DNA of 64,000 nucleotides from Flavobacteriales bacterium (GTDB lineage Bacteria > Bacteroidota > Bacteroidia > Flavobacteriales_F > PHOS-HE28), in NCBI GenBank assembly GCA_016717225.1, contig JADKGB010000013.1:34144-98143 (forward strand), read 5' to 3'. Below the pieces are notes generated by a model. The model saw only the letters and a program-made list of their open reading frames with translations, did not search any database and had not been told where the DNA came from. Shown here in pieces: positions 6,604 to 30,403 of the stretch; the first letter of the stretch is position 1, and each line of letters begins with the position of its first letter. The translations under genes and the position numbers were made by a program.

Positions 6604-6856
6604 GGAACAGCGCGCACGGGAGTAGGGGTTGGCCGTTCTTATGAGGACCTTCTATGGTCGCTTGGCGGGGCGAATTAACTACTTGGAAGCGAACAACGCA
6701 CAGGTCTTTTGATGAATGGCTCTTTTGGGCCAAGGAAGACATGGTACAAAGCGTATGGACCGGTCGCCGATAGTTGTTCCAAAGCCTCCCTTGCTATGCT
6801 TGGAACCATGCGCCGGGCAAGGATCAGTAGCTTCGTGCATCGCTGAATATTCTGCT

Positions 6857-7687: not shown

Positions 7688-8459
7688 TCACCAACCGGTG
7701 ACAAGCAGTTTTCGGGCTGCACCTGGACCGCATTTCTGCCATTTCGAGTAGGCTTGTGCCGCCCGTTCGCGCATTTGCTCATTGCTTTCGTTGCACACCC
7801 AACCTTGTAGAGCGGCGTCCAGCGTATAGGCTTCCGGCGCCATCAAACCAGTAGTCCAGAGCAGAGGTGTGGCCCCGGTAGCCTTCAACGGAGCGTTGAA
7901 GAACCGTTTGCTGATGCACGCGAGAATGACGGCCTCTCTTGTCGCTATTCGCTGGTTGGCGGGGTGCAGGCGGTGCGAAATCCATTAACCCGTCATGGCC
8001 GCAGTAGGCTATCAGATCCGCGGATCCACCAATGGCCAGTTTTATATCACCAACTTGAAGGGTGGTTGGATCATACCCCCCGGCGTAGCTCAAGAAATCG
8101 TTCGTTGCTTGTTGGATGAACTTGCCATCGTACGCATCAGCCACGAGGAACACGTTCTCGGTTACGTGTTTCCAGGTGATCCGTTCCAGAATATTCGTTC
8201 GTGGGTACGTCGAACGCTCGATCCGTTTCCATTCCTTGCTTTTGTTGAACCAGCTGCGCACACCATAAGCCGCACCCCAATACAGATTTCGTTCGGTGTC
8301 CTGGCCATTGCCCAATACGGCCGGTACGGGCACGATCCCCTGGTTCACGTTATCGCACAGGGCCACCACCACATGGATCACGCGTTGCGCGCTACCCAAA
8401 TGGGCGACCATGATCGCCCACGCGAACAGCGTCAACGGTAAACAGTGCCTTGCAGCCAT
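7688..8459 (-). pseudogene. exported hypothetical protein, apparent frameshift near 7930-7990
   Basis: The N-terminal 160 aa (signal peptide MAARHCLPLTLFAWAIMVAHLGSAQ ... LIAYCGHDGLMDF) are in one frame. A protein-like C-terminal ~100 aa (..ILACISKRFFNAPLKATGATPLLWTTGLMAPEAYTLDAALQGWVCNESNEQ..) continues in another frame. The in-frame continuation is low-complexity Pro/Arg junk. Confidence 0.45.
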
Positions 8460-8663
8460 GCGGTCATCATGTTATCGTCCAGTAGTTTTCCGATCACCCG
8501 ATGATGCGAATGCGCGAACGGGTTGTTCCTGTACAACGCCTCGGCCGGCACTCCTATTTCGTAATGATCTGCATCATCTACCTTAGCCAACCGCCTCCCG
8601 TTCCCGATCCAAGTGGATCAGGGTTTTCGGAAATCAACCCCCCCTTTCGCAGCACTTTTTATC

Positions 8664-10303
8664 ATGCGCAATTTCTCGCTGCTCTTTTTCGTCTTCGGAA
8701 TCTCGATAGGGCAGGCCCAGACGATCGGTCTGTTGGAATACTCACCTGGGAATCTGGACGGTTATGTGCTCTTTGCACCTATCCCCAGTACCACCACGTA
8801 CTTGATCGATAAGTGTGGGCGCGAAGTCCACGCCTGGCCCAGTGCCTACAAGCCAGGACAGTCGGTTTACATGTTGGACAACGGATCGTTGATACGTCCC
8901 GCGTCTATTCCGAATAACGTTTTCACTGCTGGTGGAAAAGCCGGTGCGGTCGAGCGGATCTCCTGGGATGGTGTGTTGGAATGGAGCTACCAGGTCAGTG
9001 ATACCGGGCAATGCAGTCATCACGACGTTTACCCGATGCCGAATGGGCACGTTCTCGTTCTGGCGTGGGAGAAGGTCAGCGTTGCCGAAGCGTTGGCGCA
9101 GGGTCGTGATCCGGCACTTCTAACCAATTCGTTGTGGCCAGAGAAGATCCTGGAACTTGAACCGATCGGCGAGAACCAAGCCAACATCGTTTGGGAATGG
9201 CATACATGGGACCACTTGGTGCAAGAATTTGATGATACCAAACCGAATTTCGCTCCCACCTCGGAACACCCGGAACTGGTTGATCTGAATTATGGTAACG
9301 GCATGGCGCAGGCGGATTGGATCCATGCGAACGCGCTCGACTACAATGCCGATCTGGACCAGATCATGATCAGTGCGCACAATTTCGACGAGCTCTGGGT
9401 GATCGATCATAGCACGACAACGGCCGAAGCCGCCTCGCATTCAGGTGGAACACAAGGTCACGGCGGGATCTGCTTTACCGTTGGGGAAATCCGGAAGCCT
9501 ACGGGCGTGGAACGGAAGCGGACAAGCGCCTTTTCGGCCAGCATAACACCCAGTGGATCAGGCCCGGGCTACCGCGCGCTGGTGAGGTTTTGGTCTTCAA
9601 CAACGGGGCTGGCAGGCCGGGTGGTCAGTATTCCTCGGTTGACATATTCGAAACACCGGTTGATGGGAATGGCGGTTATCCGATCGGTGTGGGTGTTCCT
9701 TTTGCTCCCGCAGCACTGGATTTCCAATGGACGGAACCGGTTCCGACGGATCTGTTCGCCCAGCGCATTTCCGGTGCACAGCAGTTGCCGAACGGAGGAT
9801 TACTTGTTTGTGATGGCCCTGCCGGATCTCTTTTCGAGTTGGGAACCAACAATGAGAAAGTGTGGCGGTACATCTCGCCCGTGAATTTGAACGGTCCTAT
9901 GACCCAAGGTGCGCCAGCCATTTTGAACACGGTATTCCGTTGCACGTGGATCGCCTCGAACCATCCGGGTCTGAATGGCCATGACCTCACTCCCGGTGAT
10001 CCCATCGAACTGGAACCATTGGCGAATGCGTGTACCACATCCAACCACCTCGAAGAAGCTGAGAACCCAGGCTTGATGGTCTTTCCTGATCCGACCTCTG
10101 GACCTGTTCAGCTTTCGCTGAACGGAGGTATCAGTTCTGTTTCCGTCACGGATGCACAGGGTAGGAGTATGGGTGTGCACCCATTGGTATCGGCAACAGG
10201 CAGAATGAGTGTGGATCTTTCCTCACTTGCGGATGGTATCTACTTGATACAAGCCGAACAAGACGGAAAGCGCTTTACCTCCCGCGTACTTGTTTCCCGT
10301 TAG
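8664..10303 (+). pseudogene. arylsulfotransferase (ASST) family protein with T9SS C-terminal domain, frameshifted at ~9465
   Basis: The N-terminal part resembles the ASST family. The second frame carries ...DLLYRWGNPEAYGRGTEADKRLFGQHNTQWIRPG..VLVFNNG and ends in the T9SS CTD GIYLIQAEQDGKRFTSRVLVSR. The frames rejoin if ggcggg is ggcgggg (a one-G deletion). Confidence 0.75.
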
Positions 10304-11109
10304 GCACCGGCATTCTTGCTCGCTCGTAAGGCATACACCATCGGTAGTTTGGCTTCCATGCCCTTGATCATGAACTGGCCATCGGCAGTGGCAACAGTAT
10401 TCTGAAAGCAGTCGTAGGGCGAACGGTCGTATTCGCGGAAGACATCCAGGCGAAGGCCTGCGATGATAAGTGCTTGCACCACATCTGCCAGGGAATGGTT
10501 CCATGCGAACGATGGCAGTTGTAATGGGGCGTTCCGAACGGCGTAGGTCCCGGACTCGTTCTCCTCGATCACTTCGCGATTGAAATAGGAGTATTGTACC
10601 CGTGAGAAGTCGTTGCTGTACATCCAGAGAGCCGGATGGAATTCAGCGAAGACCAATCGCCCACCAGGCTTCAAGTATGCTGCGATGTTCGCCGCCCAAG
10701 CGCTCAACTCGGGGAGCCAGCCAATGGTGCCGTATGTGGTAAAGACCACATCAAACCTTCCTTCGAGTTCTGTACGTCGGTCCAACACATTGCCCTCGAT
10801 GAATTCAGCACGAATGCCACAGCGATCGCTCAATTCTCGCGCTTTCGCAACAGCTTGGTCCGATAGGTCCAGTCCGGTGACGTGGGCGCCCAACCGTGCG
10901 AGTGAAAGTGTGTCCTGGCCGAAGTGGCATTGCAGATGCAACAGGTCTTGCCGGTTCACATCGCCCAAGAGATCCAACTCTATCCGGTTCAGCGTGCTTT
11001 TGCCATTCACGAAGGCCTCCACATCGTAGAACTGGGACGCATAGTGAAGCTCGGTGCGAGCATTCCACAGGGCTCGGTTCGCTTCGAAATGTGCGCGATG
11101 ATCATCCAT
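10300..11109 (-). CDS. class I SAM-dependent methyltransferase
   Basis: Assigned from general resemblance to class I SAM-dependent methyltransferases (no motif traced). Start MDDHRAHFE overlaps the upstream gene's stop (ATGA). Confidence 0.8.
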   Translation of the reverse strand: MDDHRAHFEANRALWNARTELHYASQFYDVEAFVNGKSTLNRIELDLLGDVNRQDLLHLQCHFGQDTLSLARLGAHVTGLDLSDQAVAKARELSDRCGIRAEFIEGNVLDRRTELEGRFDVVFTTYGTIGWLPELSAWAANIAAYLKPGGRLVFAEFHPALWMYSNDFSRVQYSYFNREVIEENESGTYAVRNAPLQLPSFAWNHSLADVVQALIIAGLRLDVFREYDRSPYDCFQNTVATADGQFMIKGMEAKLPMVYALRASKNAGA

Positions 11110-11786
11110 TACTTCGCAAGTGGGACCTGCTTTTCCTGTACGGGTTGAAAGGTCCCATCCTTCATGCCCCAGATCACCCAACGTTCGTGATCGCCTTCAG
11201 TGAATTTCTCCATGTTGCTCACCATCGTGAGCACGCCTTTCTCGTATTTGTAGGTGCTTCCACCGCGATGTCCTGGGCCTGCGTACCACTGAGAGCTCAC
11301 CATTTGCCGATCATGGTCGAACATGGGTTGCTGGATGCTATCGAGCATGCGCGACGATGTGAATTGGTTCGTTGCGGCATCCCACAACCAATAGCGGTGC
11401 TCGGCGTTCGTAAGGTCCGCCGCTGCTTCCATGATGCTGATGTCCTTGCTGCCGTTGAAGTCGTAGTCCAGCAGTTGCACCGCAGGGAATTGGCCATCAG
11501 GCATCGGGCAAGGGCAGGTCATGTTCTCGATCGCCAACCGTTGGAACGGTTCCTTGGCTCCTTTGGCACTTACCGAGATCGCATCAACGGAGCATTGCAC
11601 ACCCATGCTCATATGCATGTGTGTGCTCACGAGGAAGCGGATGTCCCGAAGGCTGTCGGTGAACAGGTAGCTTTCTTGTTTTGGTTTCTGTTCCGCAGCT
11701 GCAGCAGATGGGATATCCGCAGCCGCTTGTGGCACTGAGCTTCCTATGCACGCGAACAGGAGCAGAACCGGAAATAGACGGAGCAT
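11109..11786 (-). CDS. hypothetical exported protein
   Basis: Signal peptide MLRLFPVLLLFACIGSSVPQAAA. Translationally coupled to the downstream methyltransferase. No family recognised. Confidence 0.6.
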   Translation of the reverse strand: MLRLFPVLLLFACIGSSVPQAAADIPSAAAAEQKPKQESYLFTDSLRDIRFLVSTHMHMSMGVQCSVDAISVSAKGAKEPFQRLAIENMTCPCPMPDGQFPAVQLLDYDFNGSKDISIMEAAADLTNAEHRYWLWDAATNQFTSSRMLDSIQQPMFDHDRQMVSSQWYAGPGHRGGSTYKYEKGVLTMVSNMEKFTEGDHERWVIWGMKDGTFQPVQEKQVPLAK

Positions 11787-11810
11787 CGGAGCGATCGTTT
11801 GAGTTGCAAA

Positions 11811-11843
11811 AGAAGCAGGGCTTCCAATTGGAAGCCCTGCTTT
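11811..11843. terminator. hairpin terminator downstream of the lolA-like gene (minus strand)
   Basis: Perfect 13 bp stem aagcagggcttcc-aatt-ggaagccctgctt. On the minus strand it is followed by CTTTTGC. Confidence 0.5.
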
Positions 11844-11862
11844 CGGTCAATTTCGGGAAGGA

Positions 11863-12511
11863 TCAGCGTACATCGTTGATCTCTACTCCGGGGAACTTGG
11901 CCTTGTCGAACGTGAACACACTCTCGTACAGGTCCACGTTGGGGCTGAATTTCTTGAGCATGTATGTCACTTCGTTGCCCTCTTTGTAAAGCACCTTCAC
12001 CAGCTTGGGTTCCATTTTCGCTTTGTCCACGGATAGGATCACGGTGTGATAGGGCTTCTTACCAGGTTCCAGAGGGAACAACTTGAGCACTTGCACAACA
12101 GTGCCGTCGGCTTCCTTTTTCTTCAACGAACGTGCTTTTGAATCCCTGCTCATAAATGCTGAAGATCTTTGTGGGGTCCAGTTCCTTGTCCATATCCGCT
12201 GGGTCGCTGATGGTTACCTCGTTGCTCTTCTTGCTGTAAGTCCAAATGGCCTTGCCGTCGTTCACAACGGTGTTGTCCGTAAGCGTGAGGCGGAAGAGTT
12301 TGCCTTTCACTTTCACGTTACCGTCCTGCTTCACGTTCAATTTGCCCGCGGTGTTGATCAGCGTGCTGCTGAAATCGGCTTCGAAACTGGTGTACGCGCG
12401 ACTCTTCGCGATCAACTTGTCGATGATGGCTTTGCTCTTGGGGTCGTCCTGTGCACGAACAGTGGCGGTTCCGAGTATCAATAGAGCGAGGATGAGAAGG
12501 GTCTTCTTCAT
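11863..12511 (-). pseudogene. lolA: LolA-like outer-membrane lipoprotein carrier protein, frameshifted at ~12118 (A/T homopolymer)
   Basis: MKKTLLILALLILGTATVRAQ ... KIFSIYEQGFKSTFVEE in one frame. KEADGTVVQVLKLFPLEPGKKPYHTVILSVDKAKMEPKLVKVLYKEGNEVTYMLKKFSPNVDLYESVFTFDKAKFPGVEINDVR in the other. The two frames meet at gaagaaaaagg. Confidence 0.7.
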
Positions 12512-12615
12512 GTGGGCGAAATTAGCCGACCGCTGATGGCAAGGGTTGTGCCGAATTGTACCAGGGCTTGAAAAGGTTGACCGGAGAAGTGGTTCAGGCC
12601 CTGCGGACTTTGTCT

Positions 12616-13152
12616 TCAGGCCTTGGTCCGTTTCTTCGGAGCGGCCTTGGAAGTGGATCTCGCGGCCGCTTTCTTCACCGGCTTCGGCTTCTTCCACGTC
12701 AACATGGTGCCTTTGCATTTGGGGGAACCGCACTTGCATTCCCACGCTTTCAATTCCGCGGCTGTGGGTGGCTCGCTCAACACGATACCGTAGTCGTAGA
12801 TGATCTCTTCACCGGTCTTGATGTTCCGCTTGGCTTCGATGATCACTTTGTCTTTCGTGCGGTCTTTGCCTTTGGCTGTATGCACAAAAGCCACACCGTT
12901 CGGTTCGCATCCGGTGTTGATCCAGCGCGCATCGTTGCCATCCCGGTTGGCATCGATGACCCACTGCTTGTTCAGGATGAAAATGAACGTATGTCCGCTC
13001 TCGATATCGGAACTGTACCGCTCATCGGCCTCGGCATGCGTGATCAGCTTGCCTTTGTATTCCATGATATCCTCGCCTTTCTTGATATCCTCGAGGGCGA
13101 AGACGCCGTTACCGTGGATCTTCGATCGGCGCATTACTACTTTGTTCTTCAT
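12616..13152 (-). CDS. SET domain-containing protein (putative protein-lysine N-methyltransferase) with post-SET Cys cluster and Lys-rich C-terminal tail
   Basis: IHGNGVFALEDIKKGEDIMEYKG, then RWINTGCEPNG (the NHSCxPN-like motif), then GEEIIYDYG (the ELxxDY-like motif), then post-SET CKCGSPKCKG. Tail KKPKPVKKAAARSTSKAAPKKRTKA. ATG confirmed at 13152. Confidence 0.8.
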   Translation of the reverse strand: MKNKVVMRRSKIHGNGVFALEDIKKGEDIMEYKGKLITHAEADERYSSDIESGHTFIFILNKQWVIDANRDGNDARWINTGCEPNGVAFVHTAKGKDRTKDKVIIEAKRNIKTGEEIIYDYGIVLSEPPTAAELKAWECKCGSPKCKGTMLTWKKPKPVKKAAARSTSKAAPKKRTKA

Positions 13153-13261
13153 GGGCTGGTTTGGGGCCGCGAAGTTGCATGAATGGAACCATAGATGCAC
13201 GCGGATGCACACAAGTAATCCACGACCATGAACATTCTTTTGCGGCGAGGAAAAGCGGCGC

Positions 13262-14687
13262 TCAGAAATACGCCGTACACACGATCACCGCGGTGATCAC
13301 ACAGATCAGGTCCACCAGTAACATTACCCCTAGCGTGTAACGGCTGTTCTTCACGTTCACACTTCCGAAGTAGAGCGCGACCACATAGAACGTTGTTTCT
13401 GCCGCGCCTTGGAAGAGGCACGAGAGCTGCCCGGTGAGGCTGTCCGGGCCATAGGTCTTCATCGCATCCAACATGAAGCCGCGTGATCCTCCTGCGCTGA
13501 ACGGGCGCATAAGCGCGACCGGTATGGCATCGATCACTTGCTTGTCCACGCCTACCAGTCCCATCGTCCACGAAATGCCGTCCATTACAATGGTCATCAA
13601 TCCGCTGTTGCGGAAAATGCTGAGCGCCGCAAGCATCGCGATCATGTAAGGCAGCACCCGAAGGCCCGTGGTGAAGCCATCCTTCGCGCCGTGGATGAAC
13701 GAGTCGAACATGTTGGTGCCTTTCTCCGTGAAGTATTTCTCGAAGAGGAACGCATAGCCCACGATCATTGCGATGATCGCCAGCAGCATGCCATTGCTCA
13801 GGTTATCGGTGAAGTGGAATTTCTGAACACCTGTGAGCTGCGTGATGTAGGTCATCAACCCGCCAATGATGCCGCTGATCAACAACACGAACAACATCAC
13901 CGGTAGGTTGAACAGGTTGATCCGCTGGCGAAAGCCCACGATGAACAGCGCCGCTAACGTGCCTACGAACGACGTGACGCATCGGGATCATGATGTCCGC
14001 TGGATTCGCAGCGCCCTGTGCAGCACGATAGCCGATGATGCTCGTGGGCAGCAGCGTGAGCCCGGCTGCATGCAAGCACAGGAACATGATCTGGCTGTTC
14101 GATGCTTTGTCTTTCGTGGCGTTGCTCTCTTGCATGCTCTCCATCGCCTTCAAGCCGAACGGAGTGGCTGCGCTGTCCAGACCAAGGAAGTTCGCCGCGA
14201 AATTCAACGTCATGAAACCGTAGGCCGGGTGCTCATGAGGCAGATCAGGAAAGATCCGGCGGAAGACAGGGGAGAGGAAGCGCGCGAGTTTTTCCATGGC
14301 GCGTGAGTCTACCAAGAGGTTCAACAGGCCGCAGAAGAACGTGAGGTAGCCGATCAACGGTAGCCACAGATCGGTGATCGTGCCGCGACAGGTCTGGAAC
14401 AGCCCGTCGGCCGGTTGTTTGCCGATGTTCGCACTTAGTACGCCGCCCTTGCTCAACTTGAAAAGCGTATCGCCGCGTTGAACACCATTCTCCCCAGCAT
14501 TGCGCAATTCGATGAGGAAGGCTGTGCTGGCGATCGTCATCGTATCGCGCTCCGCCACCACCAGGGCGTCGCCCTGCTTGCCGTTCACCATGCTGCCCAA
14601 GGTGTACTGCCGTCCAGTGAACAACATCACCAGGATGTAGCCGATGCTGAGAAGAAGTATGAAGGTCCAGAAACGGCTGAGGGCCAT
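13262..14687 (-). pseudogene. nucleoside-recognition (Gate) domain membrane protein, SpmA/SpmB-like fusion, apparent frameshift at ~13985
   Basis: The SpmA-like N-terminal half (MALSRFWTFILLLSIGYILVMLF...) and SpmB-like C-terminal half (..FIVGFRQRINLFNLPVMLFVLLISGIIGG...) are in different frames. The junction is near ..NPADIMIP. Confidence 0.65.
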
Positions 14688-14733
14688 GTGTTGTTCGGTG
14701 GTTGGACAAAGCAGCAATGGAATGCGATCCATT

Positions 14734-14810
14734 CGTGCTCCATCCCCACTCGTGGCGAACAAACCGATGTGAAAGAGATGTCAGTGATGCGTCGGCGAGT
14801 GCGATCTTGG
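14734..14810 (+). repeat. copy 1 of an ~77 bp direct repeat (91% identical to copy 2 at 16784..16860)
   Basis: cgtgctccatccccactcgtggcgaacaaaccgatgtgaaagagatgtcagtgatgcgtcggcgagtgcgatcttgg. Ends 30 bp upstream of the hydrolase ATG. Confidence 0.85.
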
Positions 14811-14841
14811 CGCCCCAAGCATCCCCACAGATCCCCGCAAC

Positions 14842-16670
14842 ATGCCCCTAATGAAGAATGCGCTCTCCTGTTTCCTGATGATCGCATTGTTTGGTTCCTG
14901 TTCCGATCCCGGGCCGGCGGTGGTGGCGAAAGACCCCATCCACGAAGTGGAAACCGGCCTTTGTTATCCCAACTACCTGGTAGGCGACTCCACTTGGACC
15001 ATTGAGGAGCGCATGGCGCATTACGGTGTGCCCGGCATGAGTATCGCGGTGATCAAGGACAACAAGATCGCATGGATCAAGAGTTACGGTGTTGTGGACA
15101 AGGAGACCAAAGAGCCCGTTACGGACGCCACGCTCTTTCAGGCGGATCCATCAGCAAGCCGGTTTCCACATATGGCGCGTTGAAGCTGGCAGAGCTGGGC
15201 CTGATCGCATTGGATGCTGATGTGAACACGCAATTGCATTCGTGGAAACTGCCGGAGAATGAGTTCACGCAGAAGCAGAAAGTAACCCCGAAGTTGTTGC
15301 TTGGCCATATGGCAGGCACCACTGTGCACGGCTTTCTCGGCTACAGCCCCGACCTGCCCGTGCCCTCGCTTGTGCAGGTTCTGAGCGGTGAAGCTCCTGC
15401 AAATTCGCCACCCATCGTTGTGGACAAGCTGCCAGGCGAGAGTTTCCGCTATTCCGGCGGCGGTTACTGCATCATCCAGCAATTGATGATCGATGCCAAG
15501 GGCGCGACTTTTCCCAGCATCATGGATGAATTGGTGCTGCGCCCGTTGGGAATGACCAAGAGCACATACGATCAACCCCTCACCGGTGAACACCTGAAAA
15601 TGGCCGCCACAGGCTACGTGCCCGATGGATCCATGACCAAAGGGAAGCGACATACGTATCCCGAAATGGCTGCGGCAGGATTGTGGACTACGGCCGAGGA
15701 CCTCGCGCGCTATGTGATCGACGTTCAGCGTTCGTACAGCAGCGACAGTGGCGCTGTGATCTCCAAGGCTTCGGCCGCGATGATGCTGTCGCCGTACATG
15801 GAACCCTTTGCAGGCGTGGGCATGTTCCTGCGGATGAACCAAGGTGAAACTTCTTTCGGACACGGAGGTTGGGATGAAGGTTTCTCGAGCGAATGCGTCG
15901 CATACCGCGACAAGGGCTACGGTGTGGTGGTCCTTACCAATGCCAACCAGCCGGACTTCATCAGTGAGGTGATCCGTTCCGTAGCGCGGGCTTATGCCTG
16001 GAAGGGATATGTACCCACGTACACGAAACTGGAAATGGATCCCGCAGCGCTTGGAAGGGTAAGTGGGCGCTACCGCCTTTCAGGAAACTCCTTGACGACC
16101 ATTTCACATTCAGGTGGCCGCTTGTTCCAGCAGGCCATGGGCGAGGAGCCGGTTGAAATGTTCCGGATATCGGATTCCACCTACATCAGTCGGGACGGCG
16201 ACTTCCCTATCCAGTTCAAGGGATCACCAGCAGATAGCACGATGATCATGGTGAGTTGGGATACCGAAAAATGGACTGCCGCGTCAAGCTACCCAAGGTT
16301 GCAGGAAAATGACCGCCTGCCGATCGAGATGGTCCTCTCCGGTGATGTGGAAGGGGCCCTCATCGCTTACCGAACACGCTTGGTTGCGGATCCCAAGGAT
16401 CAGTCCATTTCCGAACAAGCGATCAACGATCTGGGCTACCAATTCCTCGGCAATGCAAAGATCGTGATGGCCAGGGATCTGTTCAACTTGAACAGGCAGC
16501 TATATCCCCAAAGTGCCAATACGAACGACAGTTACGCCGAAGCCTGCCTGAAGAACGGAGAAAAGGATCTGGCGCTGACCTATTACAAAAAAGCCGTTGC
16601 CATGGACCCCACCAACAGCAACGCGGCGAGGGTGATCAAGGAACTGGAGGGGAAGGAGGCTAATAAGTAG
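14842..16670 (+). pseudogene. serine hydrolase of the beta-lactamase (class C/PBP-like) family with C-terminal TPR-like region, frameshifted at ~15145
   Basis: MPLMKNALSCFLMIALFGSCS lipoprotein signal. ...YGVPGMSIAVIKDNKIAWIKSYGVVDKETKEPVTDATLFQA, then in the other frame GSISKPVSTYGALKL (the S-x-x-K active-site motif). The frames rejoin if gcgga is gcggga (a one-G deletion). Confidence 0.75.
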
Positions 16671-16783
16671 CATTCCATCCCGAACGTTCCAGATAGGGAA
16701 TGACCGCTATGGGACTCGAGCATCGTTGTCTGACCACAACCAAGTTCACACGCTGCGGACCTTTCTTGTTTTGAGTAGCTGCC

Positions 16784-16860
16784 CGTATTCCATTCCCACT
16801 CGTGGCGAACAAACCAATGTGAAAGGGATGTCAGTGATGCGTCGGCGTGAGCGATCTTGG
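16784..16860 (+). repeat. copy 2 of the ~77 bp direct repeat
   Basis: cgtattccattcccactcgtggcgaacaaaccaatgtgaaagggatgtcagtgatgcgtcggcgtgagcgatcttgg. Lies in a 900 bp non-coding region upstream of the RND efflux operon. Confidence 0.85.
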
Positions 16861-17577
16861 AGTTCCCGATTCAGCCGAACTCAACGGCGGGGTCCAGCGT
16901 TGAACGATCGCGCGAAAATGAAAAAATGTGAAACCGGGATCATGCCCCGGAACAACCTGATAAGTTCGCCGCCGATTTAGAAAGATGCTCCATCCCGCGC
17001 CCAACAGAATATTGCATGTCATCGTAGCATGTGCGTTCTGGTTCGGATTACAGATGTGCTTTCCGCAGGTGCTTCATGCAGCGGATCTCCCTGGTACGTT
17101 GGAAGAGATCAGCTGTCGCTCCATGGACCCGGAAGATCAGAATGGGAACCCGTGTCTGGGCTTCGGGCATGACATCTGCCTTCCACAGGGACTAACGATC
17201 TGCGCATCTGTGTTGGTGAACGCGCCCTGCCGGTCCTTGGAAACCGCTCATGGCCGTGGAAGCTTGTCGCTTCTTGCTTTAGAGGGTATCCAGCCCTCAG
17301 CCCCTTGATCCGACCAGTCCCGGTCCGCTGACCGGATATGCGGCCTCGTTTCCAGAGCGGCCGTTCCCTGTGAACACAGGCTTTCCGTTTACCGCGTCTT
17401 TCATTCTTGGTGGCGACCGACCCAATGGGCATGGGGCCTCCGCTTCCCGATCACCGATCCATTCTTGGTATGTTCAACAGCAGTCCTTCCATCGATCTGA
17501 AGTCTTCCCCGAAACAGGACCATCCACAACACCGGACGCTCCGGAGCGTTGAGGGAAATGGCCGCCGACAACTGGCC

Positions 17578-18684
17578 ATGGACCTCCCGCGTTCGCGTTG
17601 GCCCGCGTGGTCGCTCCTTGTAAGTCTGTGCCTTACGTTGTTGCTTGTCGGATGTGGTGCGCATGAGGAAGCCGTAGAAGTGGAGGACCCGAAGTATCCG
17701 GTCACCAGCCCGTTGCTCGCAGATACCATCGTTCAAAGCGACTACGTGTGCCAGATCCACTCTGTACAACACATCGAGTTGCGAGCGCTGGAGAAGGGCT
17801 ACCTGCAGGACATGCTGGTGGATGAAGGGCAGAAGGTATCGGAGGGACAGCTCCTGTTCCGGATCCGGCCAGTGCTTTATCAGGCCGAAGTGCAAAGGGC
17901 GCAGGCTGAGGCCGAGTTCGCGGAGATCGAGTACCGCAACACCAAGACCTTGGCGGACAGCAATGTGGTATCTCCCAACGAACTGGCGATGGCGCAGGCG
18001 CGCTACAACAAGGCCAAGGCTGAATTGGCCGCGGCCCAGGCTCACCTGGGATTCACCGAGATCCATGCACCGTTCAACGGCATCATCGGCAGATTCCATG
18101 TGCGGAAGGGTTCTTTGTTGGATGAGGGCGAACTGCTGACGGAGCTTTCGGACAACAGTTCCATGTGGGTCTACTTCAACGTGCCTGAAGCCGAATACCT
18201 GGAGTACAAGAAAAGATCCCTTGGCGGAAATGGTACCAAGGTGAAGTTGAAGATGGCCAATGGCCAGCAATTCGACCAGCAAGGCGAGATCACCGCCATC
18301 GAATCCGATTTCAACAACACCACGGGCAACATCGCGTTCCGCGCCACATTCCTCAACCCGCAAGGATTGCTGAGGCATGGGGAGACCGGCAACATCCTGA
18401 TGGACTCGGAGCTGAAAGGTGTACTGCTCGTACCACAGAAGGCCACCTTCGAGGTGCTCGATCACCGGTACGTTTATGTGGTCGGTAAGGACAGCGTACT
18501 GCACACGACACGCGTGGAGATCGGCCCTGAACTGCAGCACCTGTTCGTGGTGAACAGCGGGTTGAAGCAGGACGATCGGTTCCTGTTGGAAGGCCTCCGC
18601 AAGGTGAAGGACAAGGACAAGGTGGACTTCGAGTTCACCCCGCCCGATTCGGTGATGACGCATCTGGACCTGTACGCCGAGTGA
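17578..18684 (+). CDS. efflux RND transporter periplasmic adaptor subunit (membrane fusion protein)
   Basis: Lipoprotein signal ..LLLVGCG. Coiled-coil and beta-barrel regions typical of the HlyD/AcrA family. ATG at 17578. Confidence 0.9.
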   Translation: MDLPRSRWPAWSLLVSLCLTLLLVGCGAHEEAVEVEDPKYPVTSPLLADTIVQSDYVCQIHSVQHIELRALEKGYLQDMLVDEGQKVSEGQLLFRIRPVLYQAEVQRAQAEAEFAEIEYRNTKTLADSNVVSPNELAMAQARYNKAKAELAAAQAHLGFTEIHAPFNGIIGRFHVRKGSLLDEGELLTELSDNSSMWVYFNVPEAEYLEYKKRSLGGNGTKVKLKMANGQQFDQQGEITAIESDFNNTTGNIAFRATFLNPQGLLRHGETGNILMDSELKGVLLVPQKATFEVLDHRYVYVVGKDSVLHTTRVEIGPELQHLFVVNSGLKQDDRFLLEGLRKVKDKDKVDFEFTPPDSVMTHLDLYAE

Positions 18685-18707
18685 TCGGACGGCTTAACAC
18701 CTGAGAC

Positions 18708-21700
18708 ATGTTCAGAAACTTCATACAGCGGCCTGTATTGGCCATCGTCATCTCGGTGCTCATCCTGTTCGTGGGTGGGCTGGCGATCAAGCAATTGCCC
18801 ACGGCGCAGTTCCCGGAGATCGCGCCCACTACGGTGAACATCTTCATCGCTTACCCGGGTGCCAGCGCGGACGTGCTTACCAAGTCCACGATCATCCAGC
18901 TGGAAACGGCGATCAACGGCGTGCAGGGTATGCGTTACCTCGCCTCGGACGCCACCAGCGCCGGTGAGGGCACCATCCGCGTGATCTTCGAACCGGGCAC
19001 CGATCCCAATGAGGCCGTGGTGCGCGTGAAGACCCGCGTGGACCAGGTGATGCCCAACCTGCCGTTGCTCGTGCAGCGCGAGGGCGTGATCATCACCCCA
19101 GTGCAGCCCAGCATGCTCATGTACGTGAACCTCTACGGCGACGGAAAGGACGCGGACGAGCTCTTCCTCTATAACTACGCGTTCACGCAACTGATCCCGG
19201 AGATCCAGCGGATCCCCGGTGTGGCGCAAGCGCAGATCCTCGGTAGCCGCAAGTACGCCATGCGCGTTTGGATGAAGCCCGATCGCATGCGGGCCTATAA
19301 CATCTCCGCTCAGGAGATCATGACGGCCATGGAAGAACAGAGCCTGATCGCTAGGCCCGGCCGTCTGGGCCAGAGTTCGGGCATCGACGCACAATCCTTC
19401 GAGTACGTGCTCATCTACAAGGGCCAGTTCAACGAGCCCGAAGAGTACCGGAACATCATTATCCGCGCGAATGAGGAAGGGGAGATGATCCGCCTCCGCG
19501 ACGTCGCGGATGTCGAGCTGGGCAGTGAGTTCTTCGACATCTATTCCAACTTGGACGGAAAGCCTTCCGCTTCCATCGTGTTGAAGCAGACGCTGGGCAG
19601 CAACGCCAGCGAGGTGATCGCGCAGGTGAAGGCCAAGCTGGGCGAACTCGCCAAGTTCATGCCCCCCAGCATCGACTACAAGGTGAGCTACGACGTGTCC
19701 ACCTTCCTCGATGCCTCTATAGAGCAGGTGTTGCACACGCTGCGCGATGCCTTCATCCTGGTAGCGTTGGTGGTCTTCCTCTTCTTGGGTGATTGGCGTT
19801 CCACGTTGATCCCGATCCTCGCCGTGCCCGTGTCGCTCATCGGGGCCTTCTTCGTGATGCAAATGTTCGGCCTGTCCATCAACCTGATCACGCTGTTCGC
19901 GCTGGTGCTGGCCATCGGTATCGTGGTGGACAATGCCATCGTGGTGGTGGAAGCGGTGCACGCCAAGATGGAAGGGAACCATCATCTCACCCCGTACGCC
20001 GCGGTGAAGGAGGTGATGGGCGAGATCGGCGGTGCCATCATCGCCATCACGCTGGTGATGGTCTCGGTGTTCATCCCCATCTCCTTCATGACCGGCCCGG
20101 TGGGTGTGTTCTACCGCCAGTTCTCCATCACCATGGCGGGCTCCATCATCATCTCCGCAGTCGTAGCGCTCACGCTCACACCCGTGCTCTGTGCCATGCT
20201 GATGAAGCCGCACCACGGCACGCACCGGAAGAAGTCGATCATGGACCGCTTCATCGATGCCTTCAACCGAGGCTTCGAGCGGATCACCGGCCGCTACGTG
20301 GCCATCCTGAACAGGATCGTGGTGCGGCGCCTGCTCACCTTCGGGTCGCTGGCCGTGTTCTGCGTGGCGATCTGGTTGACCAACCAGGTACTGCCGGCGG
20401 GCTTCATCCCCAGCGAGGACCAGGGCACCATTTACGCCATCGTTCAGACGCCGCCCGGTTCCACATTGGAGACCACCAATGAAGTGGCGCGTGATCTCCA
20501 AAAGATCTGCAAGGAGATCCCCGAAGTGGAATCCGTCTCGTCGCTCGCGGGTTACGAGATCATGACCGAGGGCCGCGGATCGAACGCGGGCACCTGCCTC
20601 ATTGATCTGAAGCCTTGGCACGAGCGCAAGAAGAACGTGACCGAGGTGATGAAGGAGCTCGAGGAGAAGACCAAGGACCTGGGTGCGGTGATCGAGTACT
20701 TCGAACCACCCGCCGTTCCGGGCTTCGGCTCCTCAGCCGGGTTCTCCCTGCGCATGCTCGACAAAACGAACGGCACCGATTACCACGAGTTCGAGCGCGT
20801 GAACAATGAATTCATGGACGCGCTCCGTAAGAGGAAGGAACTCACCGGCCTGTTCACCTTTTACGCGGCCAACTTTCCGCAGTACGAAATGATCATCGAC
20901 AATAAGCTGGCGATGCAGAAGGGCGTGTCCATCGGCAAGGCGGTGGAGAACCTGAACATCCTGATCGGCAGTACCTACGAACAAGGTTTCATCCGCTTCG
21001 GCCGATTCTTCAAGGTGTACGCCCAGGCAGCGCCGGAGTATCGCCGTTATCCCACGGACCTTACCGGCCTGTTCGTGAAGAACGAGGAGGGCGAGATGGT
21101 CCCGTATTCCTCTTTCATGCACTTCGAGAAGCGCCTCGGCCCGAACGAGATCACGCGCTACAACATGTACAATTCCTCCACCATCCGTGGTCTTTCCGTG
21201 GAAGGATACACCAGTGGCGACGCCATCAAGGCGATCCAGGAAGTGGCCAAGGAGAACCTGCCCAGGGGCTACGATATCGCTTGGGAGGGCCTGTCCTACG
21301 ATGAGGCCAAGCGCGGGAACGAGGCCATCTACATCTTCATCGTCGTGCTCATCTTCGTGTACCTCGTGCTCGCCGCCCAGTACGAGAGCTTCGTGCTGCC
21401 GCTGGTGGTGATCCTTTCACTGCCGGTAGGCGTCCTCGGTTCGTTCCTGCTGCTGAAAGCGATGGGGCTGGCGAACGATGTGTACGCGCAGATCGGTATC
21501 ATTATGCTCATCGGCCTGCTGGGCAAGAACGCGGTGCTGATCGTGGAGTTCGCTGTGCAGAAGCAGCGCGCGGGAGCCACGGTACTGGAGGCGGCCATCG
21601 AAGGGGCGAAGGCCCGGTTCCGCCCGATCCTCATGACCTCCTTCGCCTTCATCGCGGGCCTTGTCCCGCTGGTGACCGCATCGGGTGCCGGTGCCATCGG

Positions 21701-21950
21701 GAACCGCACCATCGGTTCATCCTCGCTGGGTGGAATGCTCGTCGGTACGCTGATCGGCGTGCTGGTGATCCCCGGCCTCTACTACGTGTTCGCCACCATG
21801 ATCCAAGGCCGCAAGCTCATCAGCGATGAACGCGATGAACCTGTATCGGAACAGTTCGTCCGCACTGGCGAGGAAGCGAATGAATCGAAAAGACCTATAA
21901 GATGCATTGAACGCACGCCTGAGGACCTGCTCAAGCGCAAAAAGGATTGA
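18708..21950 (+). CDS. efflux RND transporter permease subunit (HAE1/AcrB family)
   Basis: 1080 aa with MFRNFIQRPVLAIVISVLILFVGGLAIKQLP. AcrB-like throughout. Confidence 0.95.
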   Translation: MFRNFIQRPVLAIVISVLILFVGGLAIKQLPTAQFPEIAPTTVNIFIAYPGASADVLTKSTIIQLETAINGVQGMRYLASDATSAGEGTIRVIFEPGTDPNEAVVRVKTRVDQVMPNLPLLVQREGVIITPVQPSMLMYVNLYGDGKDADELFLYNYAFTQLIPEIQRIPGVAQAQILGSRKYAMRVWMKPDRMRAYNISAQEIMTAMEEQSLIARPGRLGQSSGIDAQSFEYVLIYKGQFNEPEEYRNIIIRANEEGEMIRLRDVADVELGSEFFDIYSNLDGKPSASIVLKQTLGSNASEVIAQVKAKLGELAKFMPPSIDYKVSYDVSTFLDASIEQVLHTLRDAFILVALVVFLFLGDWRSTLIPILAVPVSLIGAFFVMQMFGLSINLITLFALVLAIGIVVDNAIVVVEAVHAKMEGNHHLTPYAAVKEVMGEIGGAIIAITLVMVSVFIPISFMTGPVGVFYRQFSITMAGSIIISAVVALTLTPVLCAMLMKPHHGTHRKKSIMDRFIDAFNRGFERITGRYVAILNRIVVRRLLTFGSLAVFCVAIWLTNQVLPAGFIPSEDQGTIYAIVQTPPGSTLETTNEVARDLQKICKEIPEVESVSSLAGYEIMTEGRGSNAGTCLIDLKPWHERKKNVTEVMKELEEKTKDLGAVIEYFEPPAVPGFGSSAGFSLRMLDKTNGTDYHEFERVNNEFMDALRKRKELTGLFTFYAANFPQYEMIIDNKLAMQKGVSIGKAVENLNILIGSTYEQGFIRFGRFFKVYAQAAPEYRRYPTDLTGLFVKNEEGEMVPYSSFMHFEKRLGPNEITRYNMYNSSTIRGLSVEGYTSGDAIKAIQEVAKENLPRGYDIAWEGLSYDEAKRGNEAIYIFIVVLIFVYLVLAAQYESFVLPLVVILSLPVGVLGSFLLLKAMGLANDVYAQIGIIMLIGLLGKNAVLIVEFAVQKQRAGATVLEAAIEGAKARFRPILMTSFAFIAGLVPLVTASGAGAIGNRTIGSSSLGGMLVGTLIGVLVIPGLYYVFATMIQGRKLISDERDEPVSEQFVRTGEEANESKRPIRCIERTPEDLLKRKKD

Positions 21951-23397
21951 TGAATACGACAGCAACAATGAGCCGATCGATCAACCAACTGGCGACCTTT
22001 TCCCTTCTGGCGCTGCTCTCCTTTTCTTCCTGCGTGCCGGCATTGAAAATGCGTGAGGCACGGAAGGCCGAACCCGCCACGTATGCGGGCGTTTACGATA
22101 CCACGGACGCTGCCACTACGCAATGGCGACAGTTCTTCAAAGACCCCGATCTGCGCGCGCTGGTGGACAGTGCCCTGGCCAACAACCAGGAGCTGAACAT
22201 CATGCTGCAGGAGATCGCCATCGCCCGGAACGAGGTGCGCGCGCGCAAGGGCGAATACCTGCCCTTTGTTGACTTCAGCGCGGCCGCCGATGTGGAGAAG
22301 GTGGGCCGCTACACGCGGAATGGTGCCGTGGAGGAGGCGTTGAACATTGATGAGGACAAGGCGTTCCCCGAACCACTGCCGAACTTCATGCTGGCCGCGC
22401 GGGCCTCATGGGAGCTCGATGTCTGGAAGAAACTGCGCAACGCCAAACAAGCCGCTGTGATGCGCTACCTGGGTTCTGTGGAGGGCAAGAACTTCATGGT
22501 GACCCAACTCGTCGCCGAGATCGCAGATTCCTACTACGAATTGATGACGCTGGACAACCAGTTGGAGATCCTGCGCAGCAACATCGCCATCCAGCAGGAC
22601 GCATTGGAGATGGTGAAATTGGAGAAGCTGGCGGCGAAAGTCACGGAACTGGCCGTGCGCCGGTTCGAGGCCGAAGTGCTGAAGAACCGCAGCAAGCAGT
22701 ACGACATCCAACAGCGCATCGTGGAAACGGAGAACCGGATCAACTTCCTGGTGGGCCGCTATCCGCAGCCCGTAAAACGCAACGCCCAGGCGTTCTCCAC
22801 CCTTGTGCCCGATACGATCTACGCGGGTCTGCCATCCCAATTGTTGTCTTACCGCCCCGACATCCGCAAAGCCGAACTGGAAATGGCCGCCGCCAAGCTG
22901 GATGTGAGATCGCCAAGGCGAACTTCTATCCAAGCGTGCGCCTCACGGCGGGCGTGGGGCTGAACGCGTTCGATGCGGCGCTCCTCACCGAAACGCCGGC
23001 ATCGCTGCTCTACACCGTGGCCGGTGACCTGGTCGCACCGCTGATCAACCGGAACGCCATCAAGGCCGTATATGCCAATGCGAACGCCCATCAGATCCAG
23101 GCGGTGTACGATTACGAACGCACTGTGCTGAACGCTTACGTGGAAGTGGTGAACCAGCTCTCCAACATCAGCAACCTGCGCAGCAGCTATGACCTGCGCG
23201 CGCAACAGGTGGCCACATTGAACAGTTCCATCACCATCTCGTCCAACCTCTTCCGTTCCGCCCGTGCGGACTACATGGAAGTGCTGCTCACCCAGCGCGA
23301 TGCCCTCGAATCACGATTCGAACTGGTGGAAACGCGCAAGCAGCAGATGAACGCCATGGTGAACGTATACCAGGCCTTGGGTGGTGGTTGGAAGTGA
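21947..23397 (+). pseudogene. efflux transporter outer-membrane factor (TolC/NodT family), frameshifted at ~22906
   Basis: Lipoprotein signal ..SFSSC. ...RPDIRKAELEMAAAKLDV in one frame continues as EIAKANFYPSVRLTAGVGLNAFD... in the other. gtgag is likely gtggag. The 4 nt overlap with the RND gene indicates an operon. Confidence 0.8.
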
Positions 23398-23517
23398 TCG
23401 GCTGTAGGAACCGGTCCATCGGTATGGAAGGGCCGAAGGCCATGAACGGTTGTGTTCATGACCAAGGTTCCGATCATCCAACGGAGCGAACGCGGTAGCT
23501 CGATCATCCCGACCGAG

Positions 23518-24294
23518 CTACCTCGCGGGTTCTGCCGGAGTCGGGGTCTTGGGCTTGCGCAAGTCCAAATTGTACGTGAGGATCACATGCAGTGTGCTGT
23601 TCATTTCCACGAGGTCGGCACCATTCGCGGCTCCAGGACGCTGCAACGTTTGCAGCAGGTAGCCCACCTGCACGTTTCCTTGCTTGTTGAATTGATAACC
23701 GACCAGACCGCTGATACGGTTCTGGTTCATGAGGTCCAACCGGGCATTGTCGCCGAAGTTCAGGAACAACTCATCATAAGCGCTGAGGAACCAGGCCTTG
23801 GGTTCCACCTTTTCGCGCTTGCCCAACGGCAGGGTGGCCATCAGCCGTAACCGGAATCGCGATTGGTAGAGGTACGTGTCGAACGTATAACCGGACTCCG
23901 ATGATGCATCCGCGTTCTGCAGGGCGATGAACCGTTCTTCCATGCGGTAGCGGTGCTGCAGGGCCACCTTGCCCACACGAGCCGTGAACTGGATCTGCTG
24001 ATACGCTTGGTGCTCCCAGCTGCCGGTCTTGATGGGCCATGCGCCGTAACGGTAGTTGTAGTAGTAGCTGTACCCGGCGGTGAACATTACCTCCGGGTTC
24101 AGATGAAAGTTGATCGCCGGGCGGATCAGCAGCTGTTGGGGCATCGCGCCCATTTCCGCTTGGCGGATGTGTACTTCGGTGTGGAAGCTCCAGTGGTCCG
24201 AGAGTTTGTGGTCGCCGAAGTGCGAGATCCACAAGTGGCTATTGCGATCCGTCACCCGCTGGCCGTGAGCCACGCAGGATGCGCTCAACAGCAT
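23518..24294 (-). CDS. DUF2490-like outer-membrane protein
   Basis: Signal peptide MLLSASCVAHGQ. Beta-rich composition with W/Y/R motifs resembling DUF2490. Lies downstream of the lytS/lytT pair on the same strand. Confidence 0.55.
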   Translation of the reverse strand: MLLSASCVAHGQRVTDRNSHLWISHFGDHKLSDHWSFHTEVHIRQAEMGAMPQQLLIRPAINFHLNPEVMFTAGYSYYYNYRYGAWPIKTGSWEHQAYQQIQFTARVGKVALQHRYRMEERFIALQNADASSESGYTFDTYLYQSRFRLRLMATLPLGKREKVEPKAWFLSAYDELFLNFGDNARLDLMNQNRISGLVGYQFNKQGNVQVGYLLQTLQRPGAANGADLVEMNSTLHVILTYNLDLRKPKTPTPAEPAR

Positions 24295-24344
24295 TACACA
24301 TATGGAGCCCCGGAGCGCTCGTGTGGCCTTCACACGGGCGAAGA

Positions 24345-26176: not shown

Positions 26177-26443
26177 GTGAACAGAGCACTAAAGTAGAGC
26201 CCTGGACTTGCGCTGCTCGCATGTCGCAAGGGTGGAACGCACGGATCCGGGGGTGAAGTGACGGATGTCGGGGTTGGAACCGCTGCAGCATCCGGTGGAG
26301 TGGAGATCAACGGTCCACCGGTGGAAAATGGCGATCCAACAACCGGACTTGTCGTCCTGCGGTAGGGCATGAGGCACCGCGCAGGCAGCCACGCCACTTT
26401 CGCGGCATCAACGATCACCCCACACGCACACATCCCATCCGTC

Positions 26444-30078: not shown

Positions 30079-30134
30079 GGTGCAATTGAACAAGTCGGAT
30101 CAAACCTAACCGGGTTTCCATCTCGGACCGCGTG

Positions 30135-30403
30135 ATCACCTGTACAAGCCGAACGCTCATCCACTCAACCACGGATCCGAGTTGTACAAGCCGGGCACGC
30201 GATCAGTGAAGGTCCGTTCGGCCCTGTACACCTGCGGCTCGGTGGCGTTCCAATGCCGTACGGTCTTGTACAGAAAGGCGCTCAACTTGGGCATGAATGC
30301 GGGACGATCGCACAACAATGCCGGTGGCATGTACAGCCGCGTTGAGCATCGCGCCGGTCTTCCTGTACACGAATGCTCCTGCCTTGTACGGGGGGGGGGG
30401 GGG
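30135..30403. repeat. array of seven YYTGTACA palindromic motifs at a ~42 bp period, terminating in a G14 homopolymer
   Basis: TGTACA at 30141, 30184, 30226, 30267, 30330, 30364 and 30385 (truncated). G14 at 30390..30403. The surrounding region 30094..30944 has no credible ORF. Confidence 0.8.

Follow-up and report, generated by a model that had tools for sequence, protein, structure and literature searches.

The 77-bp direct repeat that flanks a serine hydrolase gene in the 64-kb stretch of Flavobacteriales DNA analyzed here (the window) most likely owes its second copy to an ordinary rearrangement, as a scar. Copy 1 is part of a real, ancestral cis-element: conservation in relatives places it on the minus strand, as the distal, upstream half (about -75 to -50) of the promoter/control region of a divergent gene encoding a Gate-domain (SpmA/SpmB-like) membrane protein. 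Copy 2 is best explained, with a probability of about 65%, as a truncated leftover of this Gate promoter region at the junction of a strain-specific block, and not as a control element shared by the hydrolase and the neighboring RND efflux pump.

The repeat itself was confirmed as the first-pass annotation had described it. A repeat search of the window aligned the two 77-nt segments without gaps at a spacing of 2050 nt, with 70 of 77 positions identical (91%) and longest perfect runs of about 21-22 nt, and a repeat scan of all 64 kb found no third copy. The long cores of the repeat (one of 21 nt, the other of 31 nt including a single R) have two exact matches each in the window and none in 100 dinucleotide shuffles. 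In a four-way alignment the similarity begins and ends abruptly at the coordinates listed in Table 1, and the sequences flanking the two copies are unrelated. The distances proposed earlier were approximately right, with 31 nt between copy 1 and the hydrolase ATG at 14842, 113 nt between the hydrolase stop codon (16668-16670) and copy 2, and 717 nt between copy 2 and the ATG of the RND adaptor gene at 17578. The last interval had been taken for a long leader of the RND operon; it is not empty, since the RND module begins within it with a conserved ORF of 107 aa, and copy 2 lies 124 nt upstream of that gene.

Table 1. Features of the repeat-bearing locus and of the adjoining strain-specific segment (window coordinates)
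Feature	Position	Strand	Remarks
Gate-domain (nucleoside-recognition, SpmA/SpmB-like) membrane-protein gene	13262..14687	-	ATG 14687-14685; several frames in this assembly from indels
Putative -7-type box of the Gate promoter, TGCTTTGT	14706..14713	-	family consensus TtCTTTGc; outside the repeat
Repeat copy 1 (R1)	14734..14810	-	native distal part of the Gate gene control region; orthologs at the same place in L020 and L011
Conserved upstream motif in R1, TTCACA-TCGGTT-TGTTCGCC (TTCACA-N6-TGTTCGCC)	14754..14773	-	family consensus TcCACA-N6-TGTTCACCaag
Beta-lactamase-family serine hydrolase gene with C-terminal TPR	14842..16670	+	resident gene between the copies; intact in L011 and L020
Patchwork junction, 216 bp, unique to this genome	16659..16874		no counterpart in L011 and L020 (hydrolase side) or L012 and L015-19 (RND side)
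Relic, 5' part of a metallophosphoesterase gene	16721..16763	+	matches L020 13231-13270, which sister strains carry here
Repeat copy 2 (R2)	16784..16860	-	shortened copy of the Gate upstream region; motif retained at 16804-16822; no -7 box, no gene
RND module's own conserved upstream region	16875..16984	+	TAAGTTCG -7-like box and compensated palindrome
Conserved small ORF, 107 aa	16985..17308	+	signal-peptide-like N-terminus; first gene of the RND module
RND operon	17578..23397	+	adaptor 17578-18684; HAE1 pump 18708-21950; outer-membrane factor 21947-23397
Remainder of the strain-specific segment	23518..28852		DUF2490 (-); LytTR response regulator (-); LytS-type histidine kinase (-); TonB-dependent-receptor-like gene (+)
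LytTR response regulator	24345-25130	-	within the strain-specific segment
LytS-type histidine kinase	25127-26176	-	within the strain-specific segment

The assignment of copy 1 to the Gate gene follows from a comparison of 30 non-redundant Flavobacteriales loci from metagenomes, which carry Gate orthologs with 72-87% amino acid identity and whose upstream neighbors vary in identity and orientation. All these independent Gate-upstream regions conserve the motif TcCACA-N6-TGTTCACC at about 2 bits per position, compared with about 0 bits in its flanks. The full consensus on the Gate strand is C.TcCACA.c.c.cTGTTCACCaag-N37/38-ccccTtCTTTGc, and in 27 of the 30 relatives a CTTTG box stands at a fixed offset, 51 nt after TGTT. 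The same motif-box spacing of 51 nt is found in two sister-strain loci, L020 and L011; it is 50 nt in the window because of a 1-nt indel at position 14723. While this spacing is fixed, the distance to the start codon is variable: it ranges from 72 to 100 nt across the loci, and the TtCTTTGc box itself lies a few to about 30 nt before the Gate ATG. The Gate gene is intact in L020 (494/475 aa). The motif became visible only by inspection of anchored Gate-upstream regions, and BLAST found no R-like sequence upstream of the Gate orthologs. Additional occurrences sought in the Gate loci amounted to two conserved coding-sequence look-alikes downstream of Gate, within chance expectation.

The upstream half of the Gate control region probably holds a transcription factor site, this motif, at a fixed 51 nt from the Gate -7 box. 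Readings of the motif by eye as a sigma-54, ECF, CRP/FNR-type, Rex-type or DnaA-box sequence do not fit the positions that are conserved in relatives. The motif pair is a modest side finding of this study. Nevertheless, it is sharply defined and previously unannotated, many uncultured Flavobacteriales have it in front of their SpmA/SpmB-like Gate genes, and a search for the regulator of this gene family, which has no assigned function, could start from it; as a by-product it is more useful than the scar.

The left part of the locus is shared with the sister strains. L020 is 98.3% identical to the window over 11.8 kb (4849-16658) and L011 is 95% identical over 14035-16658, and the homology of both ends at the same position, 16658. 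The homology of L020 is back at 28914 (weak from about 28846) and is collinear also at 30945; the L011 locus ends before position 28914. Between these breakpoints, 12.3 kb of the window correspond to a 2.5-kb segment of L020, in which the sister strains hold genes for a T9SS-secreted protein and a metallophosphoesterase, so that conspecific genomes have different content between the same flanks, as in flexible islands. Both L011 and L020 carry copy 1 and the hydrolase gene and lack copy 2; the hydrolase is therefore a resident gene and not an acquired cassette. This comparison, which had been recommended along with the original observation, settles one of its proposals in part: a recombination scar is still the preferred reading, whereas the idea that the scars bracket an acquired cassette fails, because the variable side is that of the RND module.

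The hydrolase also fits poorly with the proposed pairing of two resistance-like units, as its score against the NCBIfam model bla_class_C is 66.4 bits with a cutoff of 415. Its domain composition is that of a generic serine hydrolase (PF00144) to which a TPR tail is attached. Its ORF is broken in this assembly by a 1-nt indel near position 15143.

The 216-bp patchwork that begins where the sister strains diverge is, as delimited by these alignments, the left edge of the 12.3-kb segment with the small ORF, the RND operon, the LytTR two-component system and the TonB-dependent receptor. In addition to copy 2, it contains a relic of the metallophosphoesterase gene displaced in this genome, with about 85% identity over 40 nt and a long exact run, TTGTCTGACCACAACCA. 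On the other side, the closest relatives of the RND module (L012 and L015-19) align with the window from exactly position 16875 on, 15 nt past copy 2; upstream of the module they have an aminotransferase and no R. The more distant RND modules (L022 and L023) have other neighbors again. The small ORF belongs to the module, with 72% amino acid identity in L012/L015 and 36% (E 2e-16) in L023/L024, and the gene of the outer-membrane factor is frameshifted in this assembly. The earlier remark that a local TetR/AraC regulator is missing needs a correction, in that a local regulator exists, the LytTR response regulator with its histidine kinase at 24345-26176. When the main ORFs from about 12600 to 33700 were scanned with Pfam, two had no match and no integrase, transposase or recombinase was detected.

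Copy 2 has no core promoter and no downstream gene in the native orientation, lies outside the RND operon's own conserved promoter region, and is thus most likely a functionally inert scar. In particular, no CAAAG is visible on the plus strand at 16741-16790, a stretch that spans the point 50-51 nt downstream of the copy-2 motif on the minus strand. All specified positions of the motif are intact in R2, the sole change within the motif span being in the N6 spacer, so that a retained binding site is possible from the sequence; with 7 changes in 77 nt, an intact motif is expected by chance in about 25% of cases.

We therefore considered whether copy 2 could have been co-opted as a working second operator for the factor that recognizes the Gate motif, acting on the RND module about 100-200 nt downstream, by antisense transcription into the 3' end of the hydrolase gene, or as a decoy. 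The identity of the specified motif positions in R1 and R2 agrees with this possibility, and the location 124 nt upstream of the first RND gene loosely fits the position of an upstream activator. However, the motif is oriented toward a -7 box at rigid spacing, and this box is absent in R2; the RND modules of all relatives examined lack R2 and have their own conserved promoter region from 16875; and the intactness of the R2 motif is statistically not separable from chance. Co-option is thus an unlikely explanation. The earlier proposal of a cis-element shared with the RND operon is not supported either, as the upstream region that the RND relatives have in common begins only beyond copy 2. A more specific version seems slightly less likely still. 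In it, an undescribed regulator of high-GC Flavobacteriales would have the bipartite Gate element (TcCACA-N6-TGTTCACC and, at exactly 51 nt, the -7 box) as its operator, and copy 2 would be a functional second operator, captured or retained because through it the same signal controls the newly acquired RND operon or, by antisense, the hydrolase. If true, the duplication of a promoter fragment would here have been observed to rewire regulation.

The main idea of the first-pass annotation was that the hydrolase and the RND operon are co-regulated through a duplicated plus-strand promoter or leader, a small RNA or a leader peptide. Both copies are indeed upstream of plus-strand genes, and the repeat end GATCTTGG is a weak (4/6) match to a -7 box, from which the start would fall some 25-35 nt ahead of the hydrolase ATG. 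Nevertheless, what relatives conserve is on the opposite strand and belongs to the Gate gene. A scan for sigma-70 promoters and terminators found none in or beside either copy. The only Rfam match at the gathering threshold in the whole window is a tRNA at 51169, and even at E<=10 the region 14600-17100 yields one chance snoRNA match, outside the repeat. The repeat does not fold better than shuffled sequences on either strand (z from -0.3 to +1.2). Similarly, a search for a conserved hairpin or attenuator between the motif and the Gate ATG, in which 34 regions (31 relatives and the three sequences of this species) were folded against shuffles, gave a significant fold only in the three sequences of this species (z of about -4.7), and the relatives scatter around z = 0.

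Both copies do read MSVMRRR(V/E)RSW, encoded by ATGTCAGTGATGCGTCGGCG(A/T)G(T/A)GCGATCTTGG, and both are followed by ATGCCCC (at 14842 and 16942), as had been noticed. The peptide frames have 11 common residues inside the repeat and diverge fully right after RSW, the copy-1 frame entering the hydrolase gene out of frame and the copy-2 frame having 50 aa without similarity; no such ORF is conserved elsewhere, including the Gate-upstream regions of relatives. L012 does not conserve the ATGCCCC that follows copy 2. A co-regulating plus-strand leader is accordingly improbable. As a caution, an upstream repeat common to two "resistance-like" genes is no evidence of their co-regulation here.

If the repeat were mobile or dispersed, as a MITE, a REP-like sequence or a pair of att sites around a cassette, this would explain why direct repeats bracket a single gene in a strain-variable region. 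Copy number beyond the window was assessed by exact-word scans of representative genomes, the source genome being read within the window. An 18-mer core has one true match among the GTDB species representatives (185,579 genomes), the R1 ortholog in L011, and 10 other matches are due to chance. A 20-mer of the same core has no matches in JGI metagenomes, the 18-mer none in viral contigs, and a 351-nt BLAST query over the junction and copy 2 (16640-16990) none in plasmids and phages; R-like BLAST matches are absent from 94 related loci with 578 kb in total. Moreover, the ends of the 77-mer carry no inverted arms, the scanned ORFs include no recombinase genes, and an att-type layout lacks its copy at the far end of the variable DNA, which is to the right of copy 2. 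Finally, the sisters keep the intervening gene without copy 2, the opposite of an empty site. The MITE-like element suggested earlier is the least credible of the explanations considered.

The assembly deserves separate attention, as a chimeric or mis-joined contig could in principle make the second copy. It is rich in indels, about 10 of which, each of one or two bases, set it apart from L020 over 11.8 kb, the Gate, hydrolase and OEP genes are each broken, and its identity to L020 steps from 99.5% to about 95% at roughly position 13850, which could reflect strain switching in the metagenome assembly and not recombination. On the other hand, a mis-join at a repeat collapses copies and makes no second one, and assemblers do not make diverged copies: there are 7 differences between R2 and R1, and the identity of the relic to L020 is no more than about 85%. 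The R1 ortholog has one difference in L020 and five in L011. Copy 2 differs from the three R1 orthologs at 7-8 sites, more than they differ among themselves (1-6), and is thus of old or imported origin, not a duplicate made during assembly. An assembly artefact is very improbable, somewhat less so than a mobile element.

In the preferred reading of copy 2 as a junction scar, a 77-bp segmental copy of only the upstream half of the Gate control region would have been deposited in a mosaic junction during the rebuilding of the neighborhood downstream of the hydrolase gene, when the 12.3-kb block arrived in place of the genes for the T9SS-secreted protein and the metallophosphoesterase. The joining was probably illegitimate, and we infer that it took place by homology-facilitated illegitimate recombination or that a template switch copied sequence from nearby. 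The 9% divergence of the copy implies that the event is old or that the template came from another lineage. The whole haplotype has probably since moved between strains, the conserved flanks serving for homologous recombination. Taken as a scar, the repeat is of little weight by itself; it marks, and helps to date, the exchange of gene content between strains through which this genome gained an RND efflux module, a two-component system and a TonB-dependent receptor. In addition, a 77-bp direct repeat could occasionally cause deletion of the hydrolase gene through recombination.

The locus can be compared with several known systems. Like flexible (replacement) islands, it has a 98%-identical left flank, gene content that differs from the hydrolase up to the Reg_prop/FtsK genes, scanned ORFs that include no mobility genes, and locally raised divergence in the flanks; the feature studied here differs from them in being a 77-bp internal duplicate at one edge, and such scars are by-products of these islands and do not define them. 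Junctions formed by illegitimate recombination or template switching are likewise short patchworks of unrelated pieces, here including the relic of a displaced gene and a copy from 2 kb away. Such joining is described in general for naturally transformable bacteria and E. coli conjugation (PMC3240628); at the present locus the mechanism is proposed from the arrangement, and the microhomologies at the joints are not convincing.

MITEs and REP-type repeats are also short, intergenic and present more than once, whereas here there are two copies, which lack inverted termini and a stable fold and have no family of related sequences in related genomes. The ATG-initiated Arg-rich frame in both copies resembles leader-peptide attenuators and small uORFs, from which it differs in having no common stop, a similarity that stops at the repeat edge, no terminator or antiterminator structure and no conservation in relatives. 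A parallel for the Gate control region is the Bacteroidota sigma-A promoter with an upstream regulator site, the flavobacterial -7 boxes of which are TAnnTTTG and TAnnTTGY at -12 to -5 (PMC9723704). The Gate box resembles this published box in position and form, while its second position is usually T, not A, and no conserved -33 TTG is visible. The upstream block of the Gate genes fits no regulator motif we can name; as a candidate counterpart of the regulator site, this second conserved block stands exactly 51 nt upstream of the box.

Most probably (about 65%), copy 1 (R1) of the repeat is the distal half of a real and conserved control region of the Gate gene, a minus-strand membrane-protein gene divergent from the hydrolase, and copy 2 (R2) is a truncated, probably inert leftover in a rearrangement junction that borders a strain-specific 12.3-kb segment. 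The two copies, 14734-14810 and 16784-16860, are identical at 70 of 77 positions without gaps in the repeat search of the window, and a four-way alignment that also takes in the orthologous stretches from two related genomes shows that the similarity starts and stops abruptly at these coordinates. The direct repeat reported by the first-pass annotation is thus confirmed; its gene distances, the peptide start MSVMRRR(V/E)RSW and the ATGCCCC strings were all recovered, approximately as described.

Within the 64-kb window the long cores common to both copies have exactly two occurrences, against none in 100 dinucleotide shuffles, and the whole-window repeat scan detected no third copy. An exact 18-nt core was compared with one genome per species (185,579 species), yielding 11 matches, ten of them chance 18-20-mers in unrelated phyla and the last one, from a Flavobacteriales MAG, being the orthologous site. 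A 20-mer of the same conserved core had no match in the JGI metagenome collection, the 18-mer core none among viral contigs, and a 351-nt query across the junction and copy 2 none among plasmids or phages. Exact-word scans recover just the orthologous site besides chance matches, and a dispersed element was therefore rejected; a mobile or dispersed origin is hardly tenable. A conserved peptide was also rejected, since the frames are common only inside the repeat, then diverge, and neither is conserved elsewhere. No Rfam family matched the repeat at the gathering threshold or at E<=10, and on both strands it folds no better than shuffled sequence.

A protein-guided scan for Gate orthologs gave 80 metagenome loci, in none of which BLAST detected an R-like sequence. 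Once the upstream regions were anchored at the start codon, a Gate-strand motif became apparent. The consensus of 30 non-redundant Gate-upstream regions (72-87% amino acid identity) is C.TcCACA.c.c.cTGTTCACCaag, followed by 37-38 unconserved nt and then ccccTtCTTTGc, with information near-maximal in the motif columns and absent from the flanks. A CTTTG box follows TGTT at a constant offset of 51 nt in 27 of the 30 regions, and the distance to the ATG ranges from 72 to 100 nt. The upstream neighbours vary in identity and orientation, which assigns the element to the Gate gene. In form the box is similar to the -7 promoter boxes of flavobacteria, TAnnTTTG and TAnnTTGY, found at -12 to -5 (PMC9723704); by this analogy the upstream block would lie between about -75 and -50, where regulator sites are typically placed. 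The bipartite element (TcCACA-N6-TGTTCACCaag plus the -7-type box TtCTTTGc), which has no Rfam entry, was observed at SpmA/SpmB-like Gate genes of high-GC Flavobacteriales (metagenome loci L025-L056); all that recurs in low-GC relatives is an ATCCACA-like word.

Copy 1 contains a match to this consensus (see table). The spacing between motif and box is 51 nt in two sister-strain loci, L020 and L011, and 50 nt in the window owing to an indel at 14723. The repeat takes in the upstream block plus another 38 nt and ends 20 nt short of the box, and hence does not include the core promoter. A strong hairpin (MFE -28.6 kcal/mol, z -4.7) is predicted between motif and Gate start (14694-14753, minus strand), also in L020 and L011, its 5' arm being the left end of copy 1. 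More distant relatives gave no significant fold between motif and Gate ATG; as the fold is limited to this species, we treated the element as acting at the DNA level.

Genes and signals around the two repeat copies
Feature	Position	Strand	Context
Gate-domain ("nucleoside recognition", SpmA/SpmB-like) membrane-protein gene	ATG 14687-14685	-	left of copy 1
-7-type box TGCTTTGT	14713-14706	-	outside repeat
Motif in copy 1, TTCACA-TCGGTT-TGTTCGCC	14773-14754	-	match to consensus
PF00144 serine hydrolase with TPR tail	14842-16670	+	right of copy 1
Small ORF, 107 aa, signal-peptide-like start	16985-17308	+	after copy 2
RND adaptor	17578-18684	+	after small ORF
HAE1 pump	18708-21950	+	after adaptor
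Outer-membrane factor	21947-23397	+	after pump
DUF2490 gene	within 23518-28852	-	downstream of RND genes
LytR-like LytTR response regulator	24345-25130	-	downstream of RND genes
LytS-type histidine kinase	25127-26176	-	downstream of RND genes
TonB-dependent-receptor-like gene	within 23518-28852	+	downstream of RND genes

The ENA contig L020 is 98.3% identical to window 4849-16658 and the GTDB MAG locus L011 95% identical to 14035-16658; both have the Gate gene and copy 1, their hydrolase is intact, and in both the homology stops at 16658, the hydrolase stop. The hydrolase is followed there by a gene for a T9SS-sorted choice-of-anchor-L protein, and in L020 next by a metallophosphoesterase gene, the L011 locus ending before this point. 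Homology of L020 resumes at 28914 and 30945, so that window 16659-28913 (12.3 kb) stands in the place of 2.5 kb of L020. A C-rich low-complexity tract, cgtcgccccccccgccgggccctccccccctc (28880-28930), lies exactly at this right boundary. No integrase or transposase was found among the segment ORFs scanned. The last four genes of the table adjoin the RND module in the window and are not beside it in the more distant modules L022 and L023; at least two blocks thus make up the segment, which is itself a mosaic. A four-copy family of 35-nt direct repeats (29221-29849, spacing 126-297 nt) inside a Reg_prop (two-component regulator propeller) gene most likely represents coding repeats of propeller blades.

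In the closest RND modules (L012 and L015-19, 83-87% nucleotide identity) the alignment to the window begins only at 16875, 15 nt beyond copy 2; an aminotransferase lies upstream of these modules and the repeat is missing, and modules further removed have different neighbours again. Conservation covers the 110 nt between 16875 and the small ORF, with a -7-like box (TAAGTTCG/TACGTTCG) 17 nt before the ATG, and the RND module thus brings its own promoter region. The ~720 nt between copy 2 and the adaptor are not an empty leader, as they hold this conserved ORF (amino acid identity 72% with the nearest RND relatives and 36% (E 2e-16) with remoter ones), and with the LytTR and LytS-type genes a local regulator does exist. 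The hydrolase scores 66 bits against a class C beta-lactamase cutoff of 415 and is therefore not recognisable as a resistance enzyme. A plus-strand promoter or leader shared by hydrolase and RND operon, as suggested by the first-pass annotation, is improbable: the conserved motif is on the Gate strand, and the RND promoter region lies beyond copy 2.

In this RND module the small ORF (L012 5545-5868, L023 1021-1338) invariably stands before the adaptor gene; its ~105-107-aa product, with a hydrophobic signal-like N-terminus and a conserved HGRGSLSLL...PSAP tail, has no Pfam or NCBIfam match. An imperfect palindrome 5' of it (16932-16955, AACCGGG-atcatg-CCCCGGAA) has a counterpart at L012 5493-5518 (AACCGGGG-gtggct-CCCCGGAA) with the stem kept and a different loop, and possibly serves the RND module as operator or hairpin.

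The stretch 16659-16874 (216 nt), found only in this genome, is a patchwork: ~50 nt of unassigned sequence come first, then a 40-nt gene relic, and copy 2 is set between two fillers of ~20 and 14 nt. The relic matches the metallophosphoesterase gene of the L020 type in its 5' part (a long exact run, ~85% identity overall). Copy 2 retains the motif (16822-16804, minus strand). Plus-strand 16741-16790, which covers the point 50-51 nt minus-strand downstream of the motif, shows no CAAAG, so copy 2 has no box there; beyond it the minus strand meets the gene relic and then the hydrolase 3' end. That copy 2 is a retained operator co-opting the RND operon, or a decoy, is unlikely: its motif is intact, but such intactness is statistically unremarkable.

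The Gate (13262-14762), hydrolase and outer-membrane factor genes are each split into overlapping ORFs, and about ten 1-2-nt indels in 11.8 kb (e.g. at 13979, 14723 and 15143) distinguish the window from L020, a same-species Illumina contig. The splits look like long-read consensus error rather than pseudogenisation, and the hydrolase "frameshift" is probably such an error. The three R1 orthologs differ pairwise at 1-6 positions and R2 from each at 7-8 sites, with two states common to R2 and L011 lost in the window R1 and L020. This pattern identifies R2 as neither a fresh duplicate nor an assembler product, and an assembly artefact is very improbable. Judged from these sequences, R2 dates back about as far as the divergence of these lineages (ANI ~95%) or further, or is an import from a slightly more distant relative.

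Identity to L020 steps near 13850 from ~99.5% (4849-13848) to ~94-96% (13849-16658), and is 93.6-94% beyond the variable segment (28914-31929). The step fits haplotype transfer by homologous recombination, which would have included the Gate 5' half, R1, hydrolase, junction, island and right flank; strain switching in metagenome assembly would look the same. The joining itself may have involved homology-facilitated illegitimate recombination, described in PMC3240628, or template switching with neighbouring DNA as the template. As a whole the finding is one more example of a known and ordinary type of feature, and only the bipartite Gate-upstream motif merits further attention.
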